From positions 6,180 to 70,179 of the forward strand of contig CBEWDL010000001.1 in NCBI GenBank assembly GCA_965555375.1: DNA of 64,000 nucleotides, in the 5' to 3' direction. How positions within the stretch are numbered: position 1 is the stretch's first letter; every line of letters begins with the position of its first letter. Shown here piece by piece: positions 7,192-48,338 of the stretch. The notes beneath the pieces were generated by a model. The model was not told where the DNA came from. It saw only the letters and a list, made by a program, of their open reading frames with translations, and searched no databases. A program made the position numbers and the translations under genes. Source of the DNA: an uncultured bacterium (GTDB lineage: Bacteria > Zixibacteria > MSB-5A5 > UBA10806).

Positions 7192-7240
7192 CATCGAATG
7201 TGGCATGCTTTTCCGCAGAATAAGCATGTTTAATTTCGCG

Positions 7241-7264
7241 CTGGCAGGAACCCTTTCCTGCCAG
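7241..7264. repeat. REP-like hairpin, inverted-orientation relative of the REP family near the RAYT gene
   Basis: CTGGCAGGAA-CCCT-TTCCTGCCAG, a 10-bp perfect stem. Core differs from the reverse complement of the REP core (GTCAGGAA-AGGG-TTCCTGAC) by a single stem base pair. Confidence 0.5.
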
Positions 7265-7323
7265 CATAAAGCGTCGGGAAGGGTCTACGACTCCTACGAG
7301 ATTCCCGACGGTGCCGTTAAAAA

Positions 7324-7887
7324 ATGAGCAGGATAAGATTAGAATTTTTCCTTCTGACTTCGTTTTTTATCATAACGCGTTTCTGGGACATAGCGGCAAC
7401 CTATTTCGTAACACCAAACCTGGAAAGGGAAACCAATCCTATAGTCTCGATATTCGGGCAGGGATGGATTGCGGTTATAATCATTCAGGCGCTACTGATG
7501 TCTGTGATAATCACTCTTAACTACTATAGCCTGTTTAAGATAGCAGCCAGCTATCCCTCACAGAGGGGCTGTTCATTTAAGGAATTTATAGCCTGTTATT
7601 ATTTTGGTGAAAAGCAGAACTTGATCAAAATGCTATATAGATTTCCTAAGAATAGAAATGTTTTAATAAGAGCGCTGGGCTATATTTTGCCAAGGGCCCT
7701 GATCGTGATCAGTATTTTCATATCCATGTCTTCGACTCTCTTAATTGTGAATGATGATTACCGTGAATTCTACGCTGTGGTAAAACCGTATTATTATATA
7801 GTTTTGATTGCGATTGTCTTTGTGTTCTGTATACTGTTTTTTAAAAGAGAATATGCACATTACCAGAAATCTCTTATGGATGAATAA
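7324..7887 (+). CDS. Low-GC hypothetical membrane protein (187 aa, about 4 TM segments)
   Basis: GC about 38%. Hydrophobic segments. No family recognised. Confidence 0.5.
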   Translation: MSRIRLEFFLLTSFFIITRFWDIAATYFVTPNLERETNPIVSIFGQGWIAVIIIQALLMSVIITLNYYSLFKIAASYPSQRGCSFKEFIACYYFGEKQNLIKMLYRFPKNRNVLIRALGYILPRALIVISIFISMSSTLLIVNDDYREFYAVVKPYYYIVLIAIVFVFCILFFKREYAHYQKSLMDE

Positions 7888-7936
7888 TATCGTCATTGCT
7901 CGATACCAGATTGATAGCCTGGCATATTATATTGCT

Positions 7937-8000
7937 CCGTCAGGTCGTAGCATCGTGTGAGCTGATGGTTTTTTAGCGGTCATGGCAAGCCATGACTCGC
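7937..8000. repeat. Composite repeat relic: degenerate long-loop REP (CCGTCAGG...CTGATGG) followed by hairpin-2 element GCGGTCATGGCAAGCCATGACTCGC
   Basis: Left arm and internal TCGTAG motif shared with REP copies at 10246 and 46046. Hairpin-2 recurs at 46869 with a compensatory stem change. Confidence 0.4.
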
Positions 8001-8285
8001 GTATGCGAAAAGGCGGGTCACGGCCTGCAGACTATGACTTGGCTTGATTTTTTTAATTGTAGGGACAGACCTTTAGGTGGCGTCATAAGTTACTTTTGAT
8101 GCATTCACCTTTTTGTGTCGGAAGTAACTTCCGACAGCACGGAAAGCATGTCACCTCTAAAGGGCGTATTTCAATACGCCCCTACGGGAATCGTCAGGAG
8201 CACGGGGCTCTGACCTGCGGGCTGGTTGTCGGGGGATAAACCCCCGATCTACTGGTACTACAATAGCCGCAGCCCGCAAAATTGG

Positions 8286-8313
8286 TTGACTTTCGTGACG
8301 AAATGAATAAATT
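8286..8313 (+). promoter_or_regulatory. Candidate sigma70-type promoter for the 8357 gene
   Basis: TTGACT, 16-nt spacer, TAAATT. About 43 nt upstream of the ATG, with RBS AAAGAGGA. Confidence 0.3.
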
Positions 8314-8356
8314 GAGAAATTTGCACGAGGGCGAATACCGCGGATAAAGAGGACTG

Positions 8357-10234
8357 ATGATGAAAGGTTTGAATCCCGACGAAATAAAAGTAATCCTGGC
8401 CACGGATTGCGGTTCCACTACGACCAAGGCTATTCTCATAGAATACCACGACGGCGAATACCGGCTGATAGTTCGCGGTGAGGCGCCCACCACCGTGGAG
8501 GCGCCATTCGAGGACGTCACAATGGGAGCCCTGAATGCTATCGGCGAGGTCGAGGAGCTTTCCGGGCGCAAGATATTGGATGAGAACGATAAGATTATCA
8601 ACCCGAGAGAAGACAAAAACGGGCAGAAGATCGGGACTGACATATATGTATCCACCTCCTCGGCGGGCGGGGGGTTGCAGATGATGGTGGCCGGCGTGGT
8701 GCGCAAGATGACGGCCGAATCGGCGGAGAGGGCGGCGTTGGGGGCCGGCGCCATTGTCATGGATGTTATCGCCTCCAACGATAAGAGGCTTCCCCACCAG
8801 CAGATCGAGAGGATCAGGCATCTCCGTCCCGATATGATTCTGCTTTCGGGAGGTATCGATGGCGGCACTACCACCCATGTGGTGGAATTAGCCGAGCTTA
8901 TCTCGGCGGCCGATCCCAAGCCGCGGCTCGGGACGGGATATAAACTTCCGGTTATCTATGCCGGGAATAAAGATGTCAGAGAACTTGTAAGAGATACGCT
9001 CGGTGATAAAACGGCGCTGGATATAGTGGATAATTTGCGTCCCGTGCTGGAGAGAGAGAATCTCCTTCCGGCCAGAGAGAAGGTTCACGACCTGTTCATG
9101 GAGCATGTCATGGCACAGGCTCCCGGCTATCGTAAGCTGATGGAGTGGACCGACGCTCCCATCATGCCGACTCCGGGGGCGGTCGGAATAATCATCAAGC
9201 GGGTGGCCGATGAGATGAATATAGAAGCGGTGGGGGTCGATATCGGGGGAGCCACCACGGACGTTTTTTCCGTATTCCGGCCCGAGGGCAAGCCTGAAGG
9301 GGTTTTCAACCGCACGGTGTCGGCTAACCTGGGGATGAGCTATTCGGTTTCCAACGTCTTCGCCGAGGCCACCATGCCGAAGGTCATGCGCTGGGTGCCG
9401 TTCGATATGGACGAGCGCGACCTGAGAAATAGAGTCAAGAACAAGATGATCCGTCCCACGACGATTCCCCAATCGATGCAGGAGCTGGTTTTCGAGCAGG
9501 CCATCGCTAAGGAAGCATTAAGGCTGGCCTTCATCCAGCATAAGAATTTCGCTACCGAATTGAAGGGTATCCAGCAGCAGCGAACCATCGCCGATGCTTT
9601 CGATCAGAGCACTGCCGGAGCCACCATTGTGAATATGATGAGCCTTGCTATCCTGATCGGTTCAGGAGGCATACTTTCGCATGCACCCCGCCGGCAGCAG
9701 GCGGCCATGATGATGATCGATGCTTTTCAGCCGGAGGGTGTTACCGAGCTGGCAGTGGATTCCATATTCATGATGCCTCAGTTGGGAGTGCTATCCGAAG
9801 TTCACCCTCAGGCGGCGACGGAGGTGTTCAACAAGGACTGCCTGATTCATCTGGGTTGCTGTGTGGCGCCAGCCGGCGAGGGCCTTAAAAAGGGCCAGGA
9901 GATGATGGAGTATAAGATAGAGCTTCCAGACGGCAATATTGAGGAAGGTAAGATTGTTGACGGGCAGATGAAGCTCATAAAACTGGGCCTGGGGGATGAT
10001 GGCCAGCCGCTGGCGGCCAAGGGGACTCTCAAACCAGCCAGAAACCTCGATCTCGGGAGGGGTAAAGGCAATACGGTCACTACAGAGCTATCTGGCGGTG
10101 TGGTCGGCATAATCCTCGATGGCCGCAGACGGCCCTTCGTTCTCCCTAACGACGCGAAAACGCGTGTCGCCAAGCTCAAGGAGTGGATGCTGGAGCTGGA
10201 TATATACCCCAGAGAGCGGCTGGAGCAGCTTTAG
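8357..10234 (+). CDS. ASKHA-fold ATPase of the glutamate mutase accessory protein GlmL/MutL family, with ~160 aa C-terminal extension
   Basis: 625 aa. N-terminal phosphate-1 motif ILATDCGSTTTKAILIE. Second actin-fold motif VGVDIGGATTDVFSV. No mutase subunits nearby. Confidence 0.55.
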   Translation: MMKGLNPDEIKVILATDCGSTTTKAILIEYHDGEYRLIVRGEAPTTVEAPFEDVTMGALNAIGEVEELSGRKILDENDKIINPREDKNGQKIGTDIYVSTSSAGGGLQMMVAGVVRKMTAESAERAALGAGAIVMDVIASNDKRLPHQQIERIRHLRPDMILLSGGIDGGTTTHVVELAELISAADPKPRLGTGYKLPVIYAGNKDVRELVRDTLGDKTALDIVDNLRPVLERENLLPAREKVHDLFMEHVMAQAPGYRKLMEWTDAPIMPTPGAVGIIIKRVADEMNIEAVGVDIGGATTDVFSVFRPEGKPEGVFNRTVSANLGMSYSVSNVFAEATMPKVMRWVPFDMDERDLRNRVKNKMIRPTTIPQSMQELVFEQAIAKEALRLAFIQHKNFATELKGIQQQRTIADAFDQSTAGATIVNMMSLAILIGSGGILSHAPRRQQAAMMMIDAFQPEGVTELAVDSIFMMPQLGVLSEVHPQAATEVFNKDCLIHLGCCVAPAGEGLKKGQEMMEYKIELPDGNIEEGKIVDGQMKLIKLGLGDDGQPLAAKGTLKPARNLDLGRGKGNTVTTELSGGVVGIILDGRRRPFVLPNDAKTRVAKLKEWMLELDIYPRERLEQL

Positions 10235-10245
10235 AATCTGGTGTG

Positions 10246-10285
10246 TCGTCAGGCCTATGGCTCGTAGAGTCTCCCGACCTGACGA
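10246..10285. repeat. REP-family long-loop variant hairpin
   Basis: TCGTCAGG ... CCTGACGA, 8-bp stem. Loop CCTATGGCTCGTAGAG closely resembles the loop of the REP copy at 46046 (CCTATGGTTCGTATGAG). Confidence 0.45.
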
Positions 10286-10397
10286 TATTTCTATCTATGA
10301 AAAGCTATCGGTTAGGAGCACCTTACCCGCGAGTCAAGGCTTGCCCTGACCGCAGACGGCGATTAGTGTGTGGCCCGATCTTCAATCTTTCAGGATT

Positions 10398-44010: not shown

Positions 44011-45666
44011 ATGAACCTGAGTAATATAAAAGCCCCTCGCGGTAAAACCATCTCCTGCAAAAGCTGGCAGCAGGAGGGAGCTATGAGGATGCTTTTAAAC
44101 AACCTCGACTCGGAGGTTGCTGAAAGACCGGAGGAGCTGGTTGTTTACGGCGGTACGGGCAAGGCGGCCAGAAACAGGGAATGTCTGGAGGCGATTTTAG
44201 AATCGTTGAAATCTCTTGAGAACGACGAAACGCTTCTGGTTCAATCCGGCAAACCGGTTGGGATTTTCAAAACGCATGAGTATTCCCCCAGGGTTCTGAT
44301 AGCCAATTCGAACCTGGTTCCCAACTGGGCTACCTGGGAGGTCTTCAGAGAGCTTGATAAACTCGGGCTGATCATGTACGGCCAGATGACTGCGGGGTCG
44401 TGGATTTATATCGGGACGCAGGGGATACTGCAGGGAACATACGAGACTTTCGCCGCCGCTGGCCAGAAACATTTTAAAAGCGATCTGTCCGGCAAGTTCA
44501 TTTTAACCGGCGGCATGGGGGGTATGGGAGGTGCCCAGCCTCTGGCAGCGACCATGAACGGGGGAGCCATTCTGGTGGTGGAGGTCGATGAAGCTCGCAT
44601 TGACCGCAGGATAGCCACCGGCTATTGCGATAAAAAGACCACATCCCTGGATGAAGCATTGAAATGGATCGACGATGCCGTGAAATCCAGGTCGCCGCTG
44701 TCGGTGGGGTTGGTCGGCAATTGCGCCGATATCGTCCCGCAGCTGGTGAAAAGAGACGTGGTCCCGGATATCGTCACCGATCAGACATCGGCGCACGATG
44801 AGCTGAACGGCTATGTGCCGCACGGAATTCCGTATGAGGAAGTCTTAAAATTAAGAAAATCGAATCCCGATAAATATGTTAAGATGTCTTTCGATTCTAT
44901 GGCTGTTCACACGCAGGCGATTCTGGATCTGCAGAAGAAAGGTTCGATCTGTTTCGATTACGGCAACAATCTTCGCGGGCAGGCGCAGAAGGCCGGAGTC
45001 AAGAACGCCTTCGATTATCCGGGGTTCGTGCCGGCTTATATCCGTCCGCTGTTCTGCGAGGGCAAAGGGCCGTTCAGGTGGGCCGCTCTCTCCGGCGATC
45101 CGAACGATATCGCGGTGACCGACGCCGCTGTATTGCGTTTATTCCCTGAAAATGAACGTCTGACACGCTGGATAAAACTGGCCTCGGAAAAAGTCAGGTT
45201 CCAGGGGCTTCCGGCCCGGATATGCTGGTTGGGGTATGGCGAACGGGACAAGCTTGGATTGGAGTTCAATAAACTCGTTCGTGAGGGCAAGATCTCGGCG
45301 CCTATTGTGATCGGGCGGGATCATCTCGATTGCGGCTCGGTAGCCTCGCCCAACCGCGAGACGGAGGCCATGAAGGACGGCTCCGACGCTATCGCCGACT
45401 GGCCGCTACTGAATGCCATGCTTAATACGGCTTCGGGGGCGTCATGGGTATCGATTCATCATGGCGGCGGGGTCGGCATGGGCCTGGCAATCCACGCCGG
45501 ACAGGTGCTGGTCTGCGACGGCACAGAGGGGATGGATATCCGCATCGAGCGGGTTTTGACAAACGATCCCGGTGTCGGCATAGCTCGCCATGCAGACGCC
45601 GGCTATGAGGAGGCTATCAAAGTAGCCGACATAAAGGGCGTGAAGATACCGATGAGGGGGAAATAG
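44011..45666 (+). CDS. hutU: Urocanate hydratase
   Basis: 551 aa. [57 protein letters not shown]. Confidence 0.95.
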
Positions 45667-45677
45667 ACGGCTCCGGC

Positions 45678-45701
45678 CTGTCAGGAAAGGGTTCCTGACA
45701 G
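45678..45701. repeat. REP element (palindromic hairpin) downstream of hutU
   Basis: CTGTCAGGAA-AGGG-TTCCTGACAG followed by GCGCG. Confidence 0.6.
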
Positions 45702-45721
45702 CGCGAGTAATATCTAATGTC

Positions 45722-46030
45722 ATGAGCAGGACTGGAAAAAACCACTACCTGATAATATATCGTCCTCCGAGAGCGAGCTTTGCGGAGGATGCCACGCCGA
45801 AGGAGACCGCCGTAATCGAACGGCATTTCGAGTATCTGAAGAATAAGCTGGCAGACGGTTCCCTTATCATGGCCGGGCGAACCGAGAATAGGAGTTTCGG
45901 CATCGCCGTCATTCAAGCCGACAGCGAGGGGATGGCGAGAGAGATAATGGCCAACGACCCGGCGGTGAAGGAGGGGGTATTCACCGGCGAGCTTCTGCCC
46001 TTCAGGCTGGCGCTGGGGGGCGGGGAGTGA
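45722..46030 (+). CDS. YciI-like protein
   Basis: 102 aa. YLIIYRP...LIMAGRTEN...GIAVIQADSEGMAREIMANDP pattern of the YciI/Dabb fold. Confidence 0.6.
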   Translation: MSRTGKNHYLIIYRPPRASFAEDATPKETAVIERHFEYLKNKLADGSLIMAGRTENRSFGIAVIQADSEGMAREIMANDPAVKEGVFTGELLPFRLALGGGE

Positions 46031-46045
46031 CTGTAAGGCTAAGAA

Positions 46046-46092
46046 CCGTCAGGAAAGGCCTATGGTTCGTATGAGGTTCCTGACGGCGCGGG
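46046..46092. repeat. REP element, long-loop variant
   Basis: CCGTCAGGAA ... TTCCTGACGG with a 21-nt loop, followed by CGCGGG. Confidence 0.6.
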
Positions 46093-46124
46093 ACGGGAAA
46101 GTTCCGGTATGAGGATGTGAATGT

Positions 46125-46158
46125 GCCGTCAGGAAAGGATTCCTGACGGCGCGGGGGG
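46125..46158. repeat. REP element
   Basis: GCCGTCAGGAA-AGGA-TTCCTGACGGC followed by GCGGGGGG. Confidence 0.6.
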
Positions 46159-46216
46159 ATGATCAAGGATAATCCAGGCAAACCATGAGTCCAGGAGAAA
46201 GATAGACCAACGGGGC

Positions 46217-46242
46217 GGGGTCAGGAACCCCTTCCTGACCCC
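46217..46242. repeat. REP element, inverted orientation / variant
   Basis: GGGGTCAGGAA-CCCC-TTCCTGACCCC. The loop is the complement of the other copies. Confidence 0.55.
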
Positions 46243-46244
46243 TC

Positions 46245-46844
46245 ATGGGAAAAAGTATGAGAGGCAGAAAACGAAATAATTTTGAAAGACACGGCGATCT
46301 ATTCTTCGTCACTTCAACAGTTGTAGGATTTGCCAGAATCTTTGAATTGAAGTATATGTGCGATATAATGATTGAAAACCTGAATTATTATCAGAATAGG
46401 GGTGATTTCACCATCATCGCTTATGTCATAATGCCGGATCATTTTCATCTTATCATAAAAACCGACAAGGGCTTATCAATATCACAATGTATCGGAAATC
46501 TCAAGCGAATCACTTCAAGAAAGATAACTTCGGAATTAGAGAAACAAGGGAATAAAAAGCTATTATCATCCCTTAGCAAAAACGCCTTGTTGGAACCGTC
46601 GTCGGATAGCAGAGTATGGAAATATCGGTTTGACTCTTTCGTCATTACAAATGAGGATACCTTACGCCGGAAGATTCAATATATTCATAATAATCCGGTA
46701 ACGTCCGGCCTGGTTTCGGAACCGACGGAATGGCGATATACAAGCGCCCGAAATTATGCGGGGCTGGATGATGTCTTGATTCCGGTTGATGTCGAATGGA
46801 GATGTTTGGATTACGGCTTTGTGCCGTCAGGAAAGGGTTCCTGA
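46245..46844 (+). CDS. REP-associated tyrosine transposase (RAYT; IS200/IS605 TnpA-like HuH Y1 transposase)
   Basis: HuH motif IMPDHFHLII. Catalytic Tyr region KIQYIHNNPVTSGLV. 199 aa. The stop codon lies inside the downstream REP. Confidence 0.7.
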   Translation: MGKSMRGRKRNNFERHGDLFFVTSTVVGFARIFELKYMCDIMIENLNYYQNRGDFTIIAYVIMPDHFHLIIKTDKGLSISQCIGNLKRITSRKITSELEKQGNKKLLSSLSKNALLEPSSDSRVWKYRFDSFVITNEDTLRRKIQYIHNNPVTSGLVSEPTEWRYTSARNYAGLDDVLIPVDVEWRCLDYGFVPSGKGS

Positions 46845-46855
46845 CGGCGCGGGGG
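46823..46855. repeat. REP element overlapping the RAYT stop codon
   Basis: GCCGTCAGGAA-AGGG-TTCCTGACGGC followed by GCGGGGG. The TGA stop of the transposase is within the right arm. Confidence 0.6.
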
Positions 46856-46868
46856 AGTGCACAAATTG

Positions 46869-46893
46869 GCGGTTACGGCAAGCCGTGACTCGC
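46869..46893. repeat. Hairpin-2 element (second copy)
   Basis: GCGGTTACGGCAAGCCGTGACTCGC versus GCGGTCATGGCAAGCCATGACTCGC at 7977. Stem T-A to C-G compensatory change. Confidence 0.4.
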
Positions 46894-47069
46894 AGGCTAA
46901 GGGTCTTGGTCCTGAGGGGAATCTGGTGAATAAACCAGATAACGGGATTGCTGTAGTTCAGATAAAATATGACGAGAATGGTGATTTTTTGGAAAAGAGA
47001 TATTATGACGCTGATATGGTGCTTTCCGTAGTATCCTATGAAGATAGCAGTGATGCAAGGTAGGTCTAT

Positions 47070-48338
47070 ATGCAAACTCTCACAGCCTCTTTAATAATCA
47101 AGAACGCCTCGCAGCTGGTCACCATGCACGATCCGAAGAAAATCGGGCCGAAGGGTGGCAAGGATATGGGGCAGCTCAACATAATCAAGAACGGGGCGGT
47201 GGCGATCTACGGCTCGCGGATAGTAGCCGTGGGTGAAACAAAGAGCATACTCAAAAAGGTTAGAATTACCAGGAGAACGAAAATATTCGACGCCGAAAAG
47301 CGGGTGGTCACACCCGGCCTGATCGATCCGCACACGCATCCGGTCTTCGCCGGGCAGAGATCGGCGGAGTTCGAGATGCGGATCGCCGGGAAATCGTATA
47401 TGGAGATCGCCAAAGCCGGCGGCGGAATCAATTCGACAGTGAAATCGGTCAGGAAAGCATCGAAAAATAAACTCAAGGAAAACGGACGGAAGATTCTCGA
47501 TAAGATGCTCTCTTATGGAACCACTACAATCGAGGCCAAATCTGGCTACGGCCTGACCACCAGAGACGAGATTAAGCAATTGCAAGCGATAAAGGAGTTA
47601 AGCCAGGAGCATGAAGTGGATCTGGTCCCGACTTTTCTGGGAGCACATGAGATCCCTCCGGAGTATAAGAAGAATCCGGATGCCTATGTCAACCTGGTTT
47701 GCACGGAGATGATCCCGAAGGTGGTTTCGAAAAATCTGGCGGTTTTCTGCGATGTGTTCTGCGAAAGAGGCGTTTTCACCACCAAACAGACCAGGGTAAT
47801 TTTGCAAACTGCCCAGGCGTTCGGATTGAGGGCCAAGCTTCATGCCGATGAACTTCACAATACCGGCGGCGCGGAGTTGGCGGCGGAGTTCGGGGCGGCA
47901 TCGGCCGATCATCTCGTCTGCGTCAACGATGAGGGGATTCACCTGATGCAGAAAGCGGGGGTGGTGCCGGTTCTCCTGCCGGGCACAACTTTCTATCTGG
48001 GGCTGGACAAGGACGCGCCGGCCGGAAAGATGATCGATAAAGGGCTCCCCGTAGCCCTGGCGACAGACTGCAATCCGGGATCGTCGATGACCGAATCGAT
48101 GCAGATGATCATGACCCTGGCCTGTCTCAAATACGGGATGTCTCCGGCGGAAGTCCTGACGGCATCGACGTTGAATGCCGCCTATGCCATCGGCAAGGAG
48201 AGCGAAACGGGTTCCCTGGCGCCCGGTAAATGGGCCGATCTGGTTATATGGGACGCCGAGGATTATCGTGAGATTCCATATCATTTCGGCGGCAATATGG
48301 TCGATAGCGTATTCAAGCGAGGGGAGAAAGTCCGGTGA
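47070..48338 (+). CDS. hutI: Imidazolonepropionase
   Basis: 422 aa. IDPHTHPVFAG metal-binding motif. Amidohydrolase fold. Pairs with hutU. Confidence 0.9.
   Translation: MQTLTASLIIKNASQLVTMHDPKKIGPKGGKDMGQLNIIKNGAVAIYGSRIVAVGETKSILKKVRITRRTKIFDAEKRVVTPGLIDPHTHPVFAGQRSAEFEMRIAGKSYMEIAKAGGGINSTVKSVRKASKNKLKENGRKILDKMLSYGTTTIEAKSGYGLTTRDEIKQLQAIKELSQEHEVDLVPTFLGAHEIPPEYKKNPDAYVNLVCTEMIPKVVSKNLAVFCDVFCERGVFTTKQTRVILQTAQAFGLRAKLHADELHNTGGAELAAEFGAASADHLVCVNDEGIHLMQKAGVVPVLLPGTTFYLGLDKDAPAGKMIDKGLPVALATDCNPGSSMTESMQMIMTLACLKYGMSPAEVLTASTLNAAYAIGKESETGSLAPGKWADLVIWDAEDYREIPYHFGGNMVDSVFKRGEKVR

Follow-up and report, generated by a model that had tools for sequence, protein, structure and literature searches.

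Short palindromic hairpins recur in the intergenic DNA of a 64,000-nucleotide (nt) stretch of an uncultured Zixibacteria genome (contig CBEWDL010000001.1 of assembly GCA_965555375.1, positions 6,180 to 70,179; hereafter the window), and they raise the question of whether one mobile repeat system is at work here or two. The first hairpin, REP1, is a repetitive extragenic palindrome (REP) that brackets the gene of a REP-associated tyrosine transposase (RAYT), here called RAYT1. The second, H2, is a 25-nt hairpin (GCGGTYANGGCAAGCCNTGACTCGC) that an earlier note on this DNA had described from two copies and had by implication taken for an accessory of the REP1 system. Our analysis points with considerable confidence to another answer: H2 is probably a second REP family (REP2), each REP family being matched to its own RAYT clade, and it would have been moved by a RAYT2-type enzyme that is encoded outside the window or has been lost.

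Copies, fold, and covariation of the H2 hairpin

The window holds three copies of H2, where zero are expected by chance:

7976..8000, plus strand: H2/REP2 hairpin copy 1, GCGGTCATGGCAAGCCATGACTCGC; covariance model 42.9 bits
46869..46893, plus strand: H2/REP2 hairpin copy 2, GCGGTTACGGCAAGCCGTGACTCGC; 39.7 bits; 20 nt past REP1
10329..10353, minus strand: H2/REP2 hairpin copy 3, GCGGTCAGGGCAAGCCTTGACTCGC on the minus strand; 40.4 bits

With a covariance model of the family these copies score 40 to 43 bits (E about 1e-9), and no other site in the window exceeds 17 bits. REP1 hairpins score 13 to 14 bits with the same model because the stem base GTCAGG/CCTGAC is common to both families. The sequences named in the earlier note are present essentially where it put them; its H2 copy at 46869-46893 is exact, the one it gave as 7977-8000 starts one base earlier (7976), and the third copy, at 10329-10353 on the minus strand, had been missed. 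The note was also correct in reading a T-A to C-G compensatory change and a C-G to T-G wobble between its two copies, and G-T stands at the same pair in the third copy.

The REP2 hairpin rests on a lower stem of 3 bp (GCG/CGC), above which a single base (T, A, or G) bulges out on the 3′ side; the upper stem has 8 bp (GTCAnnnn/nnnnTGAC) and ends in a 2-nt AA tip. The minimum-energy DNA fold of H2 copy 1 is exactly this bulged hairpin. Conservation covers the feet, the bulge position, and the tip; the pairs of the inner stem vary as long as they stay paired. A looser search of the fetched loci returned a continuous family, GCGGTCA-(stem)-AA-(stem)-TGAC[T/A/G]CGC, with many apices. Variants with a T, A, or G bulge, together with hybrids of apex and bulge, stand side by side in one genome, and the T-, A-, and G-bulge forms are therefore treated here as one family.

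Further copies were sought in 185,579 species-representative genomes with the pattern GCGGTNNNGGCAAGCCNNNACTCGC, in which three stem pairs are free. The scan returned 76 loci, with a clean split into pairing and non-pairing matches. The 66 pairing copies are confined to 11 genomes, each of which is multi-copy, and 12 single non-pairing matches fall in 12 unrelated, mostly high-GC genomes, as chance predicts. In an unbiased pairing test on 81 pattern matches, which include the three H2 copies of the window, 52 are Watson-Crick at all three free stem pairs versus 1.6% expected; the versions found are CAG/CTG, CGC/GCG, CAC/GTG, CAT/ATG, and TAC/GTA. Across an alignment of 30 distinct sequences, double substitutions occur in 7 of 11 pairs, and 98.5% of the cells pair versus 24 to 48% with slid partners, the first of these percentages being inflated because the sequences were chosen for at least six pairs. 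The selection on structure proposed in the earlier note is thus borne out by the pairing test and the double changes. By this pattern of substitution, H2 is a real repeat selected for structure and not a chance pair; chance similarity is rejected on the zero copies expected, the pairing, and the multi-copy genomes. H2 is also what a REP is by definition, a short imperfect palindrome that is extragenic and multi-copy and whose structure is kept by compensatory change. It begins with GCGGTCA and ends with GACTCGC, and it bears neither of the terminal tags GTAG and CGTC.

REP2 hairpins flank the genes of a separate RAYT clade

The window encodes a MutL-family protein (8357-10234) that is 85% identical to that of the Zixibacteria metagenome-assembled genome (MAG) MFD05942.bin.1.318 (locus L030), which makes the source of the window a related Zixibacterium. 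Located 3′ of the MutL-family gene in L030 is RAYT2 (L030:1932-2483), a gene for a protein of 183 amino acids that is 29% identical to RAYT1, scores 101.6 bits on the NCBIfam model NF047646 (cut-off 80), and has intact HUH and YIHGNP motifs. It is flanked by an inverted GCGTGTCAAAGCTTGCTTTGACCGC directly before the ATG and a direct GCGGTCGAAGTAAACTTCGACACGC directly after the stop. Nine more RAYT2-clade genes from metagenomes (L077-L083, L157, and L158; 47 to 56% identity) have the same inverted flanks, typically ttGCGGTCACAATAAATTGTGACACGCaa, and several of these genes carry the Joint Genome Institute (JGI) name "REP element-mobilizing transposase RayT." Two of the REP2-flanked RAYT2 genes stem from P0015 and P0020, on short, unlabelled metagenome contigs. 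In 10 of 10 loci, all outside the window and among them that of L030, which is syntenic with the window, genes of the RAYT2 clade stand between inverted REP2 hairpins (GCGGTCA...TGAC[A/T/G]CGC), which speaks against the implied role of H2 as an accessory of the REP1 system. The H2 covariance model gave no strong match in 73 loci with more distant RAYTs, which makes the REP2 hairpin clade-specific.

The two genomes differ by presence and absence at the MutL-family locus: L030:1845-2520 has RAYT2 and two REP2 hairpins, while the window at 10235-10397 has only a long-loop REP1 and a solo H2 on the minus strand. The site and minus orientation of this H2 copy (10329-10353) match those of the REP2 that flanks RAYT2 on the 5′ side in L030, and no RAYT is present there in the window.

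A third RAYT was observed at L065:5173-5637 on the minus strand. It scores 103.4 bits on NF047646 and is flanked by inverted GTCGGGTGCGGAGACCCGAC-type hairpins, further copies of which are scattered in that Zixibacteria MAG (L018, L040, and L046).

REP1 is matched to RAYT1

The REP1 core, GCCGTCAGGAAAGGGTTCCTGACGGCGCG, has eight extragenic copies in the window, five at the flanks of the RAYT gene and three at a distance of 36 to 39 kb:

7237..7265, minus strand: REP1 copy, inverted, CGCGCTGGCAGGAACCCTTTCCTGCCAGC; 46 nt past the stop of the isopropylmalate dehydrogenase gene
7937..7968, plus strand: degenerate REP1-type hairpin with a long loop, CCGTCAGG...CTGATGG; TCGTAG in the loop, followed by TTTTTTA
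10246..10285, plus strand: REP1 long-loop variant between convergent genes; stem TCGTCAGG/CCTGACGA, with CCTATGGCTCGTA in the loop
45678..45706, plus strand: REP1 copy between the urocanase gene and the YCII-domain gene, CTGTCAGGAAAGGGTTCCTGACAGCGCGA
46046..46086, plus strand: REP1 long-loop variant with the 17-nt insert CCTATGGTTCGTATGAG in the loop
46125..46150, plus strand: REP1 copy
46217..46242, minus strand: REP1 copy, inverted, GGGGTCAGGAACCCCTTCCTGACCCC; 2 nt ahead of the first ATG of the RAYT1 open reading frame (ORF)
46245..46844, plus strand: RAYT1, REP-associated tyrosine transposase gene, 199 amino acids, HUH and YIHNNP motifs; PF01797, NF047646
46823..46848, plus strand: REP1 copy, direct; overlaps the stop codon and last codons of RAYT1 and is kept in orthologous loci

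RAYT1 scores 110.6 bits on NF047646 (cut-off 80), its best match in the PDB is 4er8 (TnpArep of E. coli), and its residues H61, H63, and Y143 are invariant in the RAYT alignment. The gene is bracketed by the inverted REP1 at 46217-46242 and the direct one at 46823-46848. REP1 flanks RAYT1 in six of six distinct loci checked (the window included; orthologues with 56 to 88% protein identity), and the inverted copy directly 5′ of the start codon is also found in the orthologous loci L165-L170. REP1 is, as these flanks indicate, the hairpin of the window-encoded RAYT1, its cognate. In the window, RAYT1 lies within a histidine-utilization (hut) operon (44011-48338) made up of urocanase, an optional YCII gene, RAYT1, and an imidazolonepropionase-like amidohydrolase. 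Most RAYT1 orthologues (56 to 88% identity) occupy the same position, and the site is kept in L165, L167, and L168, down to 67% identity, which indicates long vertical inheritance there.

Three copies (7237-7265, 7937-7968, and 10246-10285) lie away from RAYT1, every one of them intergenic, and the earlier note was right that the family is dispersed far from its transposase gene. Its hairpin at 7241-7264 is inverted, as claimed, and is somewhat longer than described: the copy at 7237-7265 has an 11-bp stem (7240-7265) rather than one of 10 bp, a CCCT loop, and a CGC tail (7237-7239). The DNA fold of this stem has an energy of −13.6 kcal/mol (z −5.2). The copy is 86 to 93% complementary to the REP1 copies at 45678 and 46816, and the single base-pair difference that had been reported holds against the 45678 variant, two compensatory base pairs separating it from the reverse complement of the 46824 core. 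The loop motif that the note saw in common between 10246-10285 and 46046-46086 is exact (CCTATGGYTCGTA) and lies inside a REP1 loop both times. The long-loop motif CCTATGGNTCGTA has 0 matches among 158 fetched loci and is thus private to the genome of the window; the REP1 loops of relatives hold other inserts (e.g., L167). Intergenic DNA makes up 8% of the window, and all 11 REP1 and H2 elements lie in it, the copy at 46823-46848 being partly in the 3′ end of RAYT1. REP1 was considered as a member of the CGTC-tag family and rejected, since its CGTC is paired within the stem (PMC3733652).

Mixed clusters of REP1 and H2

The earlier note had placed H2 15 to 20 nt downstream of a REP-type hairpin. 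This is roughly right, although the real gaps from REP1 to H2 are 7, 20, and 43 nt and the third H2 has the opposite orientation. The spacers differ in sequence as well as in length, and two of the three pairs are head-to-tail. A comparison of window 46848-46893 with L165:10589-10635 shows the REP1 at the 3′ end of RAYT1 to be identical over 57 nt and the next 12 nt to be unrelated; where the window has H2, L165 has another REP2-type hairpin, which is decayed (18.8 bits). This combination of a conserved REP1, an unrelated spacer, and a different REP2 suggests that REP2 copies came to the REP1 tail independently or were replaced there, rather than that the two form a fixed composite.

Between 7888 and 8357, the intergenic DNA holds a mixed cluster of the REP1-like hairpin, H2, the hairpin at 8116-8136, and a GTAG-tagged hairpin:

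8162..8185, minus strand: GTAG-tagged hairpin, a further REP type common in Zixibacteria loci, GTAGGGGCGTATTGAAATACGCCC

The hairpin at 8116-8136 is a perfect 10-bp one (TGTCGGAAGT-A-ACTTCCGACA) with no further copies in the window or the fetched loci. The earlier note had regarded the arrangement as a composite of the bacterial interspersed mosaic element (BIME) kind. Co-localization of the hairpins holds, but alternation does not, the linkers are unrelated, and a further, GTAG-tagged family is present; unrelated spacers and mostly head-to-tail pairs make this a heterogeneous REP cluster and not a true BIME.

Weighing the alternatives

One rival holds that H2 is mobilized in trans by RAYT1 as a sub-module of the REP1 system, or is a relic without an active enzyme. 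In the window, each H2 has a REP1-type hairpin no more than 45 nt away (for all three to lie at most 50 nt from a REP1 hairpin, the chance is about 0.002), one of them is 20 nt away from the REP1 copy that closes RAYT1 on the 3′ side, the two families have in common the stem base that gives REP1 its 13 to 14 bits with the H2 model, and a REP1-H2 pair is also present in the relative L046. Nevertheless, REP1 alone flanks the RAYT1 orthologues, REP2 hairpins specifically flank a distinct RAYT clade, and H2 is found in genomes and loci without REP1; nor is H2 a conserved part of the unit, given the unrelated spacers and the decayed, different REP2 of the closest relative, L165. Mobilization by RAYT1 is not favored on these grounds, and we regard this rival as rather unlikely. 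The strong covariation of the stem could also befit a structured RNA element (a stabilizer in the 3′ untranslated region, a processing site, or a protein-binding hairpin) that shares the transcript of the upstream gene and is under selection as RNA, and all three window copies are indeed sense and downstream of a gene end, with G-T at two stem positions, which RNA could tolerate. This reading is improbable when all 51 classifiable copies (those not at a contig edge and not inside a called ORF) are considered: tandem regions contain 13 sense and 23 antisense copies, and others lie in divergent and convergent regions, so that the mapping to gene ends proposed in the earlier note reveals no strand bias. 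In some genomes the mismatches read G-T on one strand, in others C-A (G-T on the other strand), e.g., CTAAC in Marinimicrobia, and hence no single strand is favored. Rfam has no gathering-level match in the whole window and only chance-level ones (E ≥ 0.97) in 7200-8400, and the search that the note had suggested for the 25-nt element matched no Rfam family. No intrinsic terminator call falls on H2 or on canonical REP1, and H2 has no T-tract, TTTTTT being found only after the degenerate hairpin at 7937-7968; a tRNA/tmRNA scan found none. The inverted placement of H2 relatives around transposase genes also speaks against an RNA role. Very improbable, finally, is a double-stranded palindromic operator of a dimeric DNA-binding protein conserved in these phyla. 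The element is intergenic and its outer half-sites GGTCA/TGAC are nearly invariant, but an operator has no need for the inner eight positions to stay complementary while they change, yet they do; moreover, the asymmetric bulge is conserved, copies occur in inverted doublets and at RAYT gene flanks, and they have no consistent place relative to promoters or gene starts.

Several observations weigh against H2 as a REP2 family moved by a RAYT2-type enzyme. A search of the 64-kb window for a RAYT2-type gene found none. The copies that flank RAYT2 carry an A or G bulge and other apices, and none equals the T-bulge GGCAAGCC of the window. At locus L035, T-bulge H2 flanks both sides of a different, divergent RAYT-like gene. 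The window copies, moreover, have no nearby H2 partner by the covariance model and are singlets, whereas inverted doublets (REPINs) are thought to be the mobile unit. The inflated pairing percentage of the 30-sequence alignment belongs here as well.

The exact T-bulge subtype was seen as a flank only of the divergent L035 gene, which scores 62.6 bits on NF047646, below the cut-off of 80. As the true partner of T-bulge H2, this gene was considered and left unconfirmed: orthologues with 63 to 73% identity keep only similar feet with other apices, and those with 54 to 56% have no H2. An internal GTAG palindrome in all orthologues of the gene suggests a different cognate repeat. Within the ORF, a perfect GTAG-tagged palindrome (GTAGGGGTTTGATTAATCAAACCCCTAC) encodes RRGLINQTPT, a conserved peptide of a large RAYT-like family (4634 matches, E < 1e-15). 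It lies at L035:1639-1666 and also in L159-L164, and the same hairpin type is dispersed in Zixibacteria loci, with one copy in the window (8162-8185, minus strand). A REP-like hairpin in frame within a probable transposase gene may be autoregulatory.

Spread of H2 across genomes

Of the 11 genomes with H2, three are unclassified MAGs and one is a Terriglobia MAG; the others are labeled Zixibacteria, Marinimicrobia, or Ignavibacteria. In the related MAG CAWFQL01, strict matches number at least 19, with variants in addition, and inverted H2 doublets are found in related genomes (L013, L033, L039, and L035). Viral contigs gave 0 matches to H2 and thus no sign of phage carriage. The same 19 fixed REP2 bases, with a covarying inner stem, recur under Zixibacteria, Marinimicrobia, Ignavibacteria, and 65%-GC Terriglobia MAG labels. 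If these labels are right, it is possible, though we put it forward tentatively, that one RAYT-REP pair crossed phylum boundaries repeatedly or stayed recognizable since before the lineages split. The 3′ tail of REP1 may, moreover, serve another family as a landing site. A cross-phylum REP2 would depart from the view of REPIN-RAYT systems as lineage-specific and strictly vertical, and the same hairpin in several phyla would permit a direct test of horizontal RAYT-REP transfer.

In the Terriglobia MAG JBKKAI01, H2 occupies the middle of a composite repeat, about 150 nt long, whose three hairpins all have a GCAAGC/GCTTGC apex (L001, L002, L005, L011, L012, L020-L029, L037, L041, L044, L053, L057, and L074). 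Most of these copies are at contig ends, which implies that the repeat breaks the assembly. In Marinimicrobia (L007, L010, L015, L048, and L056), H2 adjoins another repeat, CCCCTCCTT..AAGGAGGGGA followed by GGGGTGGTT, and the CCCCTCCTT..AAGGAGGGGA repeat is probably a separate family.

Proposed mechanism and significance

Most likely, a RAYT whose gene lies outside the window moves H2 in single-stranded form, by a mechanism that we model on TnpA-REP of E. coli (PMC3333891, PMC3479197). A RAYT2-type enzyme, encoded beyond the 64-kb window or since lost, would bind and cut the hairpin in single-stranded DNA, and the cut hairpin would be copied to new intergenic sites. Copies that no longer fold would drop out of propagation, which would give rise to the compensatory changes. 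The enzyme would read the folded single strand at its base and tip, so that the feet, bulge, and tip would be fixed and the inner stem would be free as long as it is paired. Elements may also insert preferentially beside existing hairpins, which would produce mixed clusters of REP1, REP2, and GTAG-tagged hairpins. Catalysis, the choice of RAYT that acts on the T-bulge subtype, and the preference for such targets are what we infer here.

To our knowledge, work on REPs and RAYTs has so far been almost wholly in Proteobacteria. The window and its relatives extend the same RAYT-REP architecture to the uncultured phylum Zixibacteria, where no fewer than three or four RAYT clades are each paired with a hairpin of their own. 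The constant feet, bulge, and tip against a drifting inner stem offer natural variation for asking what a RAYT reads in its substrate. Annotators should treat H2 and REP hairpins as repeats to be masked, and small RNA or terminator calls on them should be avoided; these hairpins also break short-read assemblies.

Comparison with known systems

REPs are typically present in more than 100 copies per host genome, and BIMEs consist of REPs in regularly alternating orientation with conserved linker motifs. The closest known architecture is that of REP/RAYT systems, or "REPtrons" (Nunvar 2010, PMC2817692; Ton-Hoang 2012, PMC3333891; Messing 2012, PMC3479197). As in those systems, the elements described here are short, GC-rich, imperfect palindromes clustered in intergenic DNA, with a single Y1/HUH RAYT gene between two inverted copies. 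The RAYT of the window (RAYT1) passes NF047646 ("REP-associated tyrosine transposase"), as do RAYT2 and RAYT3, and the best solved relative of RAYT1 is TnpArep of E. coli (4er8). Unlike them, the host belongs to the phylum Zixibacteria, which was nowhere mentioned together with REPs in our literature search, and H2 has a 2-nt tip, a conserved single-base bulge, and a cognate RAYT that is not in the window. Two large REP superfamilies bear GTAG or CGTC terminal tags (Di Nocera 2013, PMC3733652), and H2 is without this mark of most REPs.

Genomes with several REPIN/RAYT families, such as Pseudomonas fluorescens SBW25 (Bertels and Rainey 2011, PMC3116915; Bertels 2017, PMC5581495), resemble this system in that a lineage has several RAYT paralogues, each tied to a hairpin family of its own. 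Here too the RAYTs are single-copy and syntenic, RAYT1 being kept in the hut operon in at least three relatives, and inverted H2 doublets are found in related genomes. In contrast, H2 in the window consists of singlets paired with hairpins of another family and not of homotypic REPINs, and its 19 fixed bases recur across labeled phyla, whereas REPIN families have been described as lineage-specific and vertically inherited. The BIMEs of E. coli likewise cluster REPs of more than one type in a single intergenic region. They differ in that the orientation in the window does not alternate regularly, the linkers of 7, 20, and 43 nt are unrelated, and REP1 and H2 come from different RAYT clades and are not Y/Z variants of one family. 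The system is a further example of a known element type, and its unusual part is one hairpin frame in several labeled phyla.

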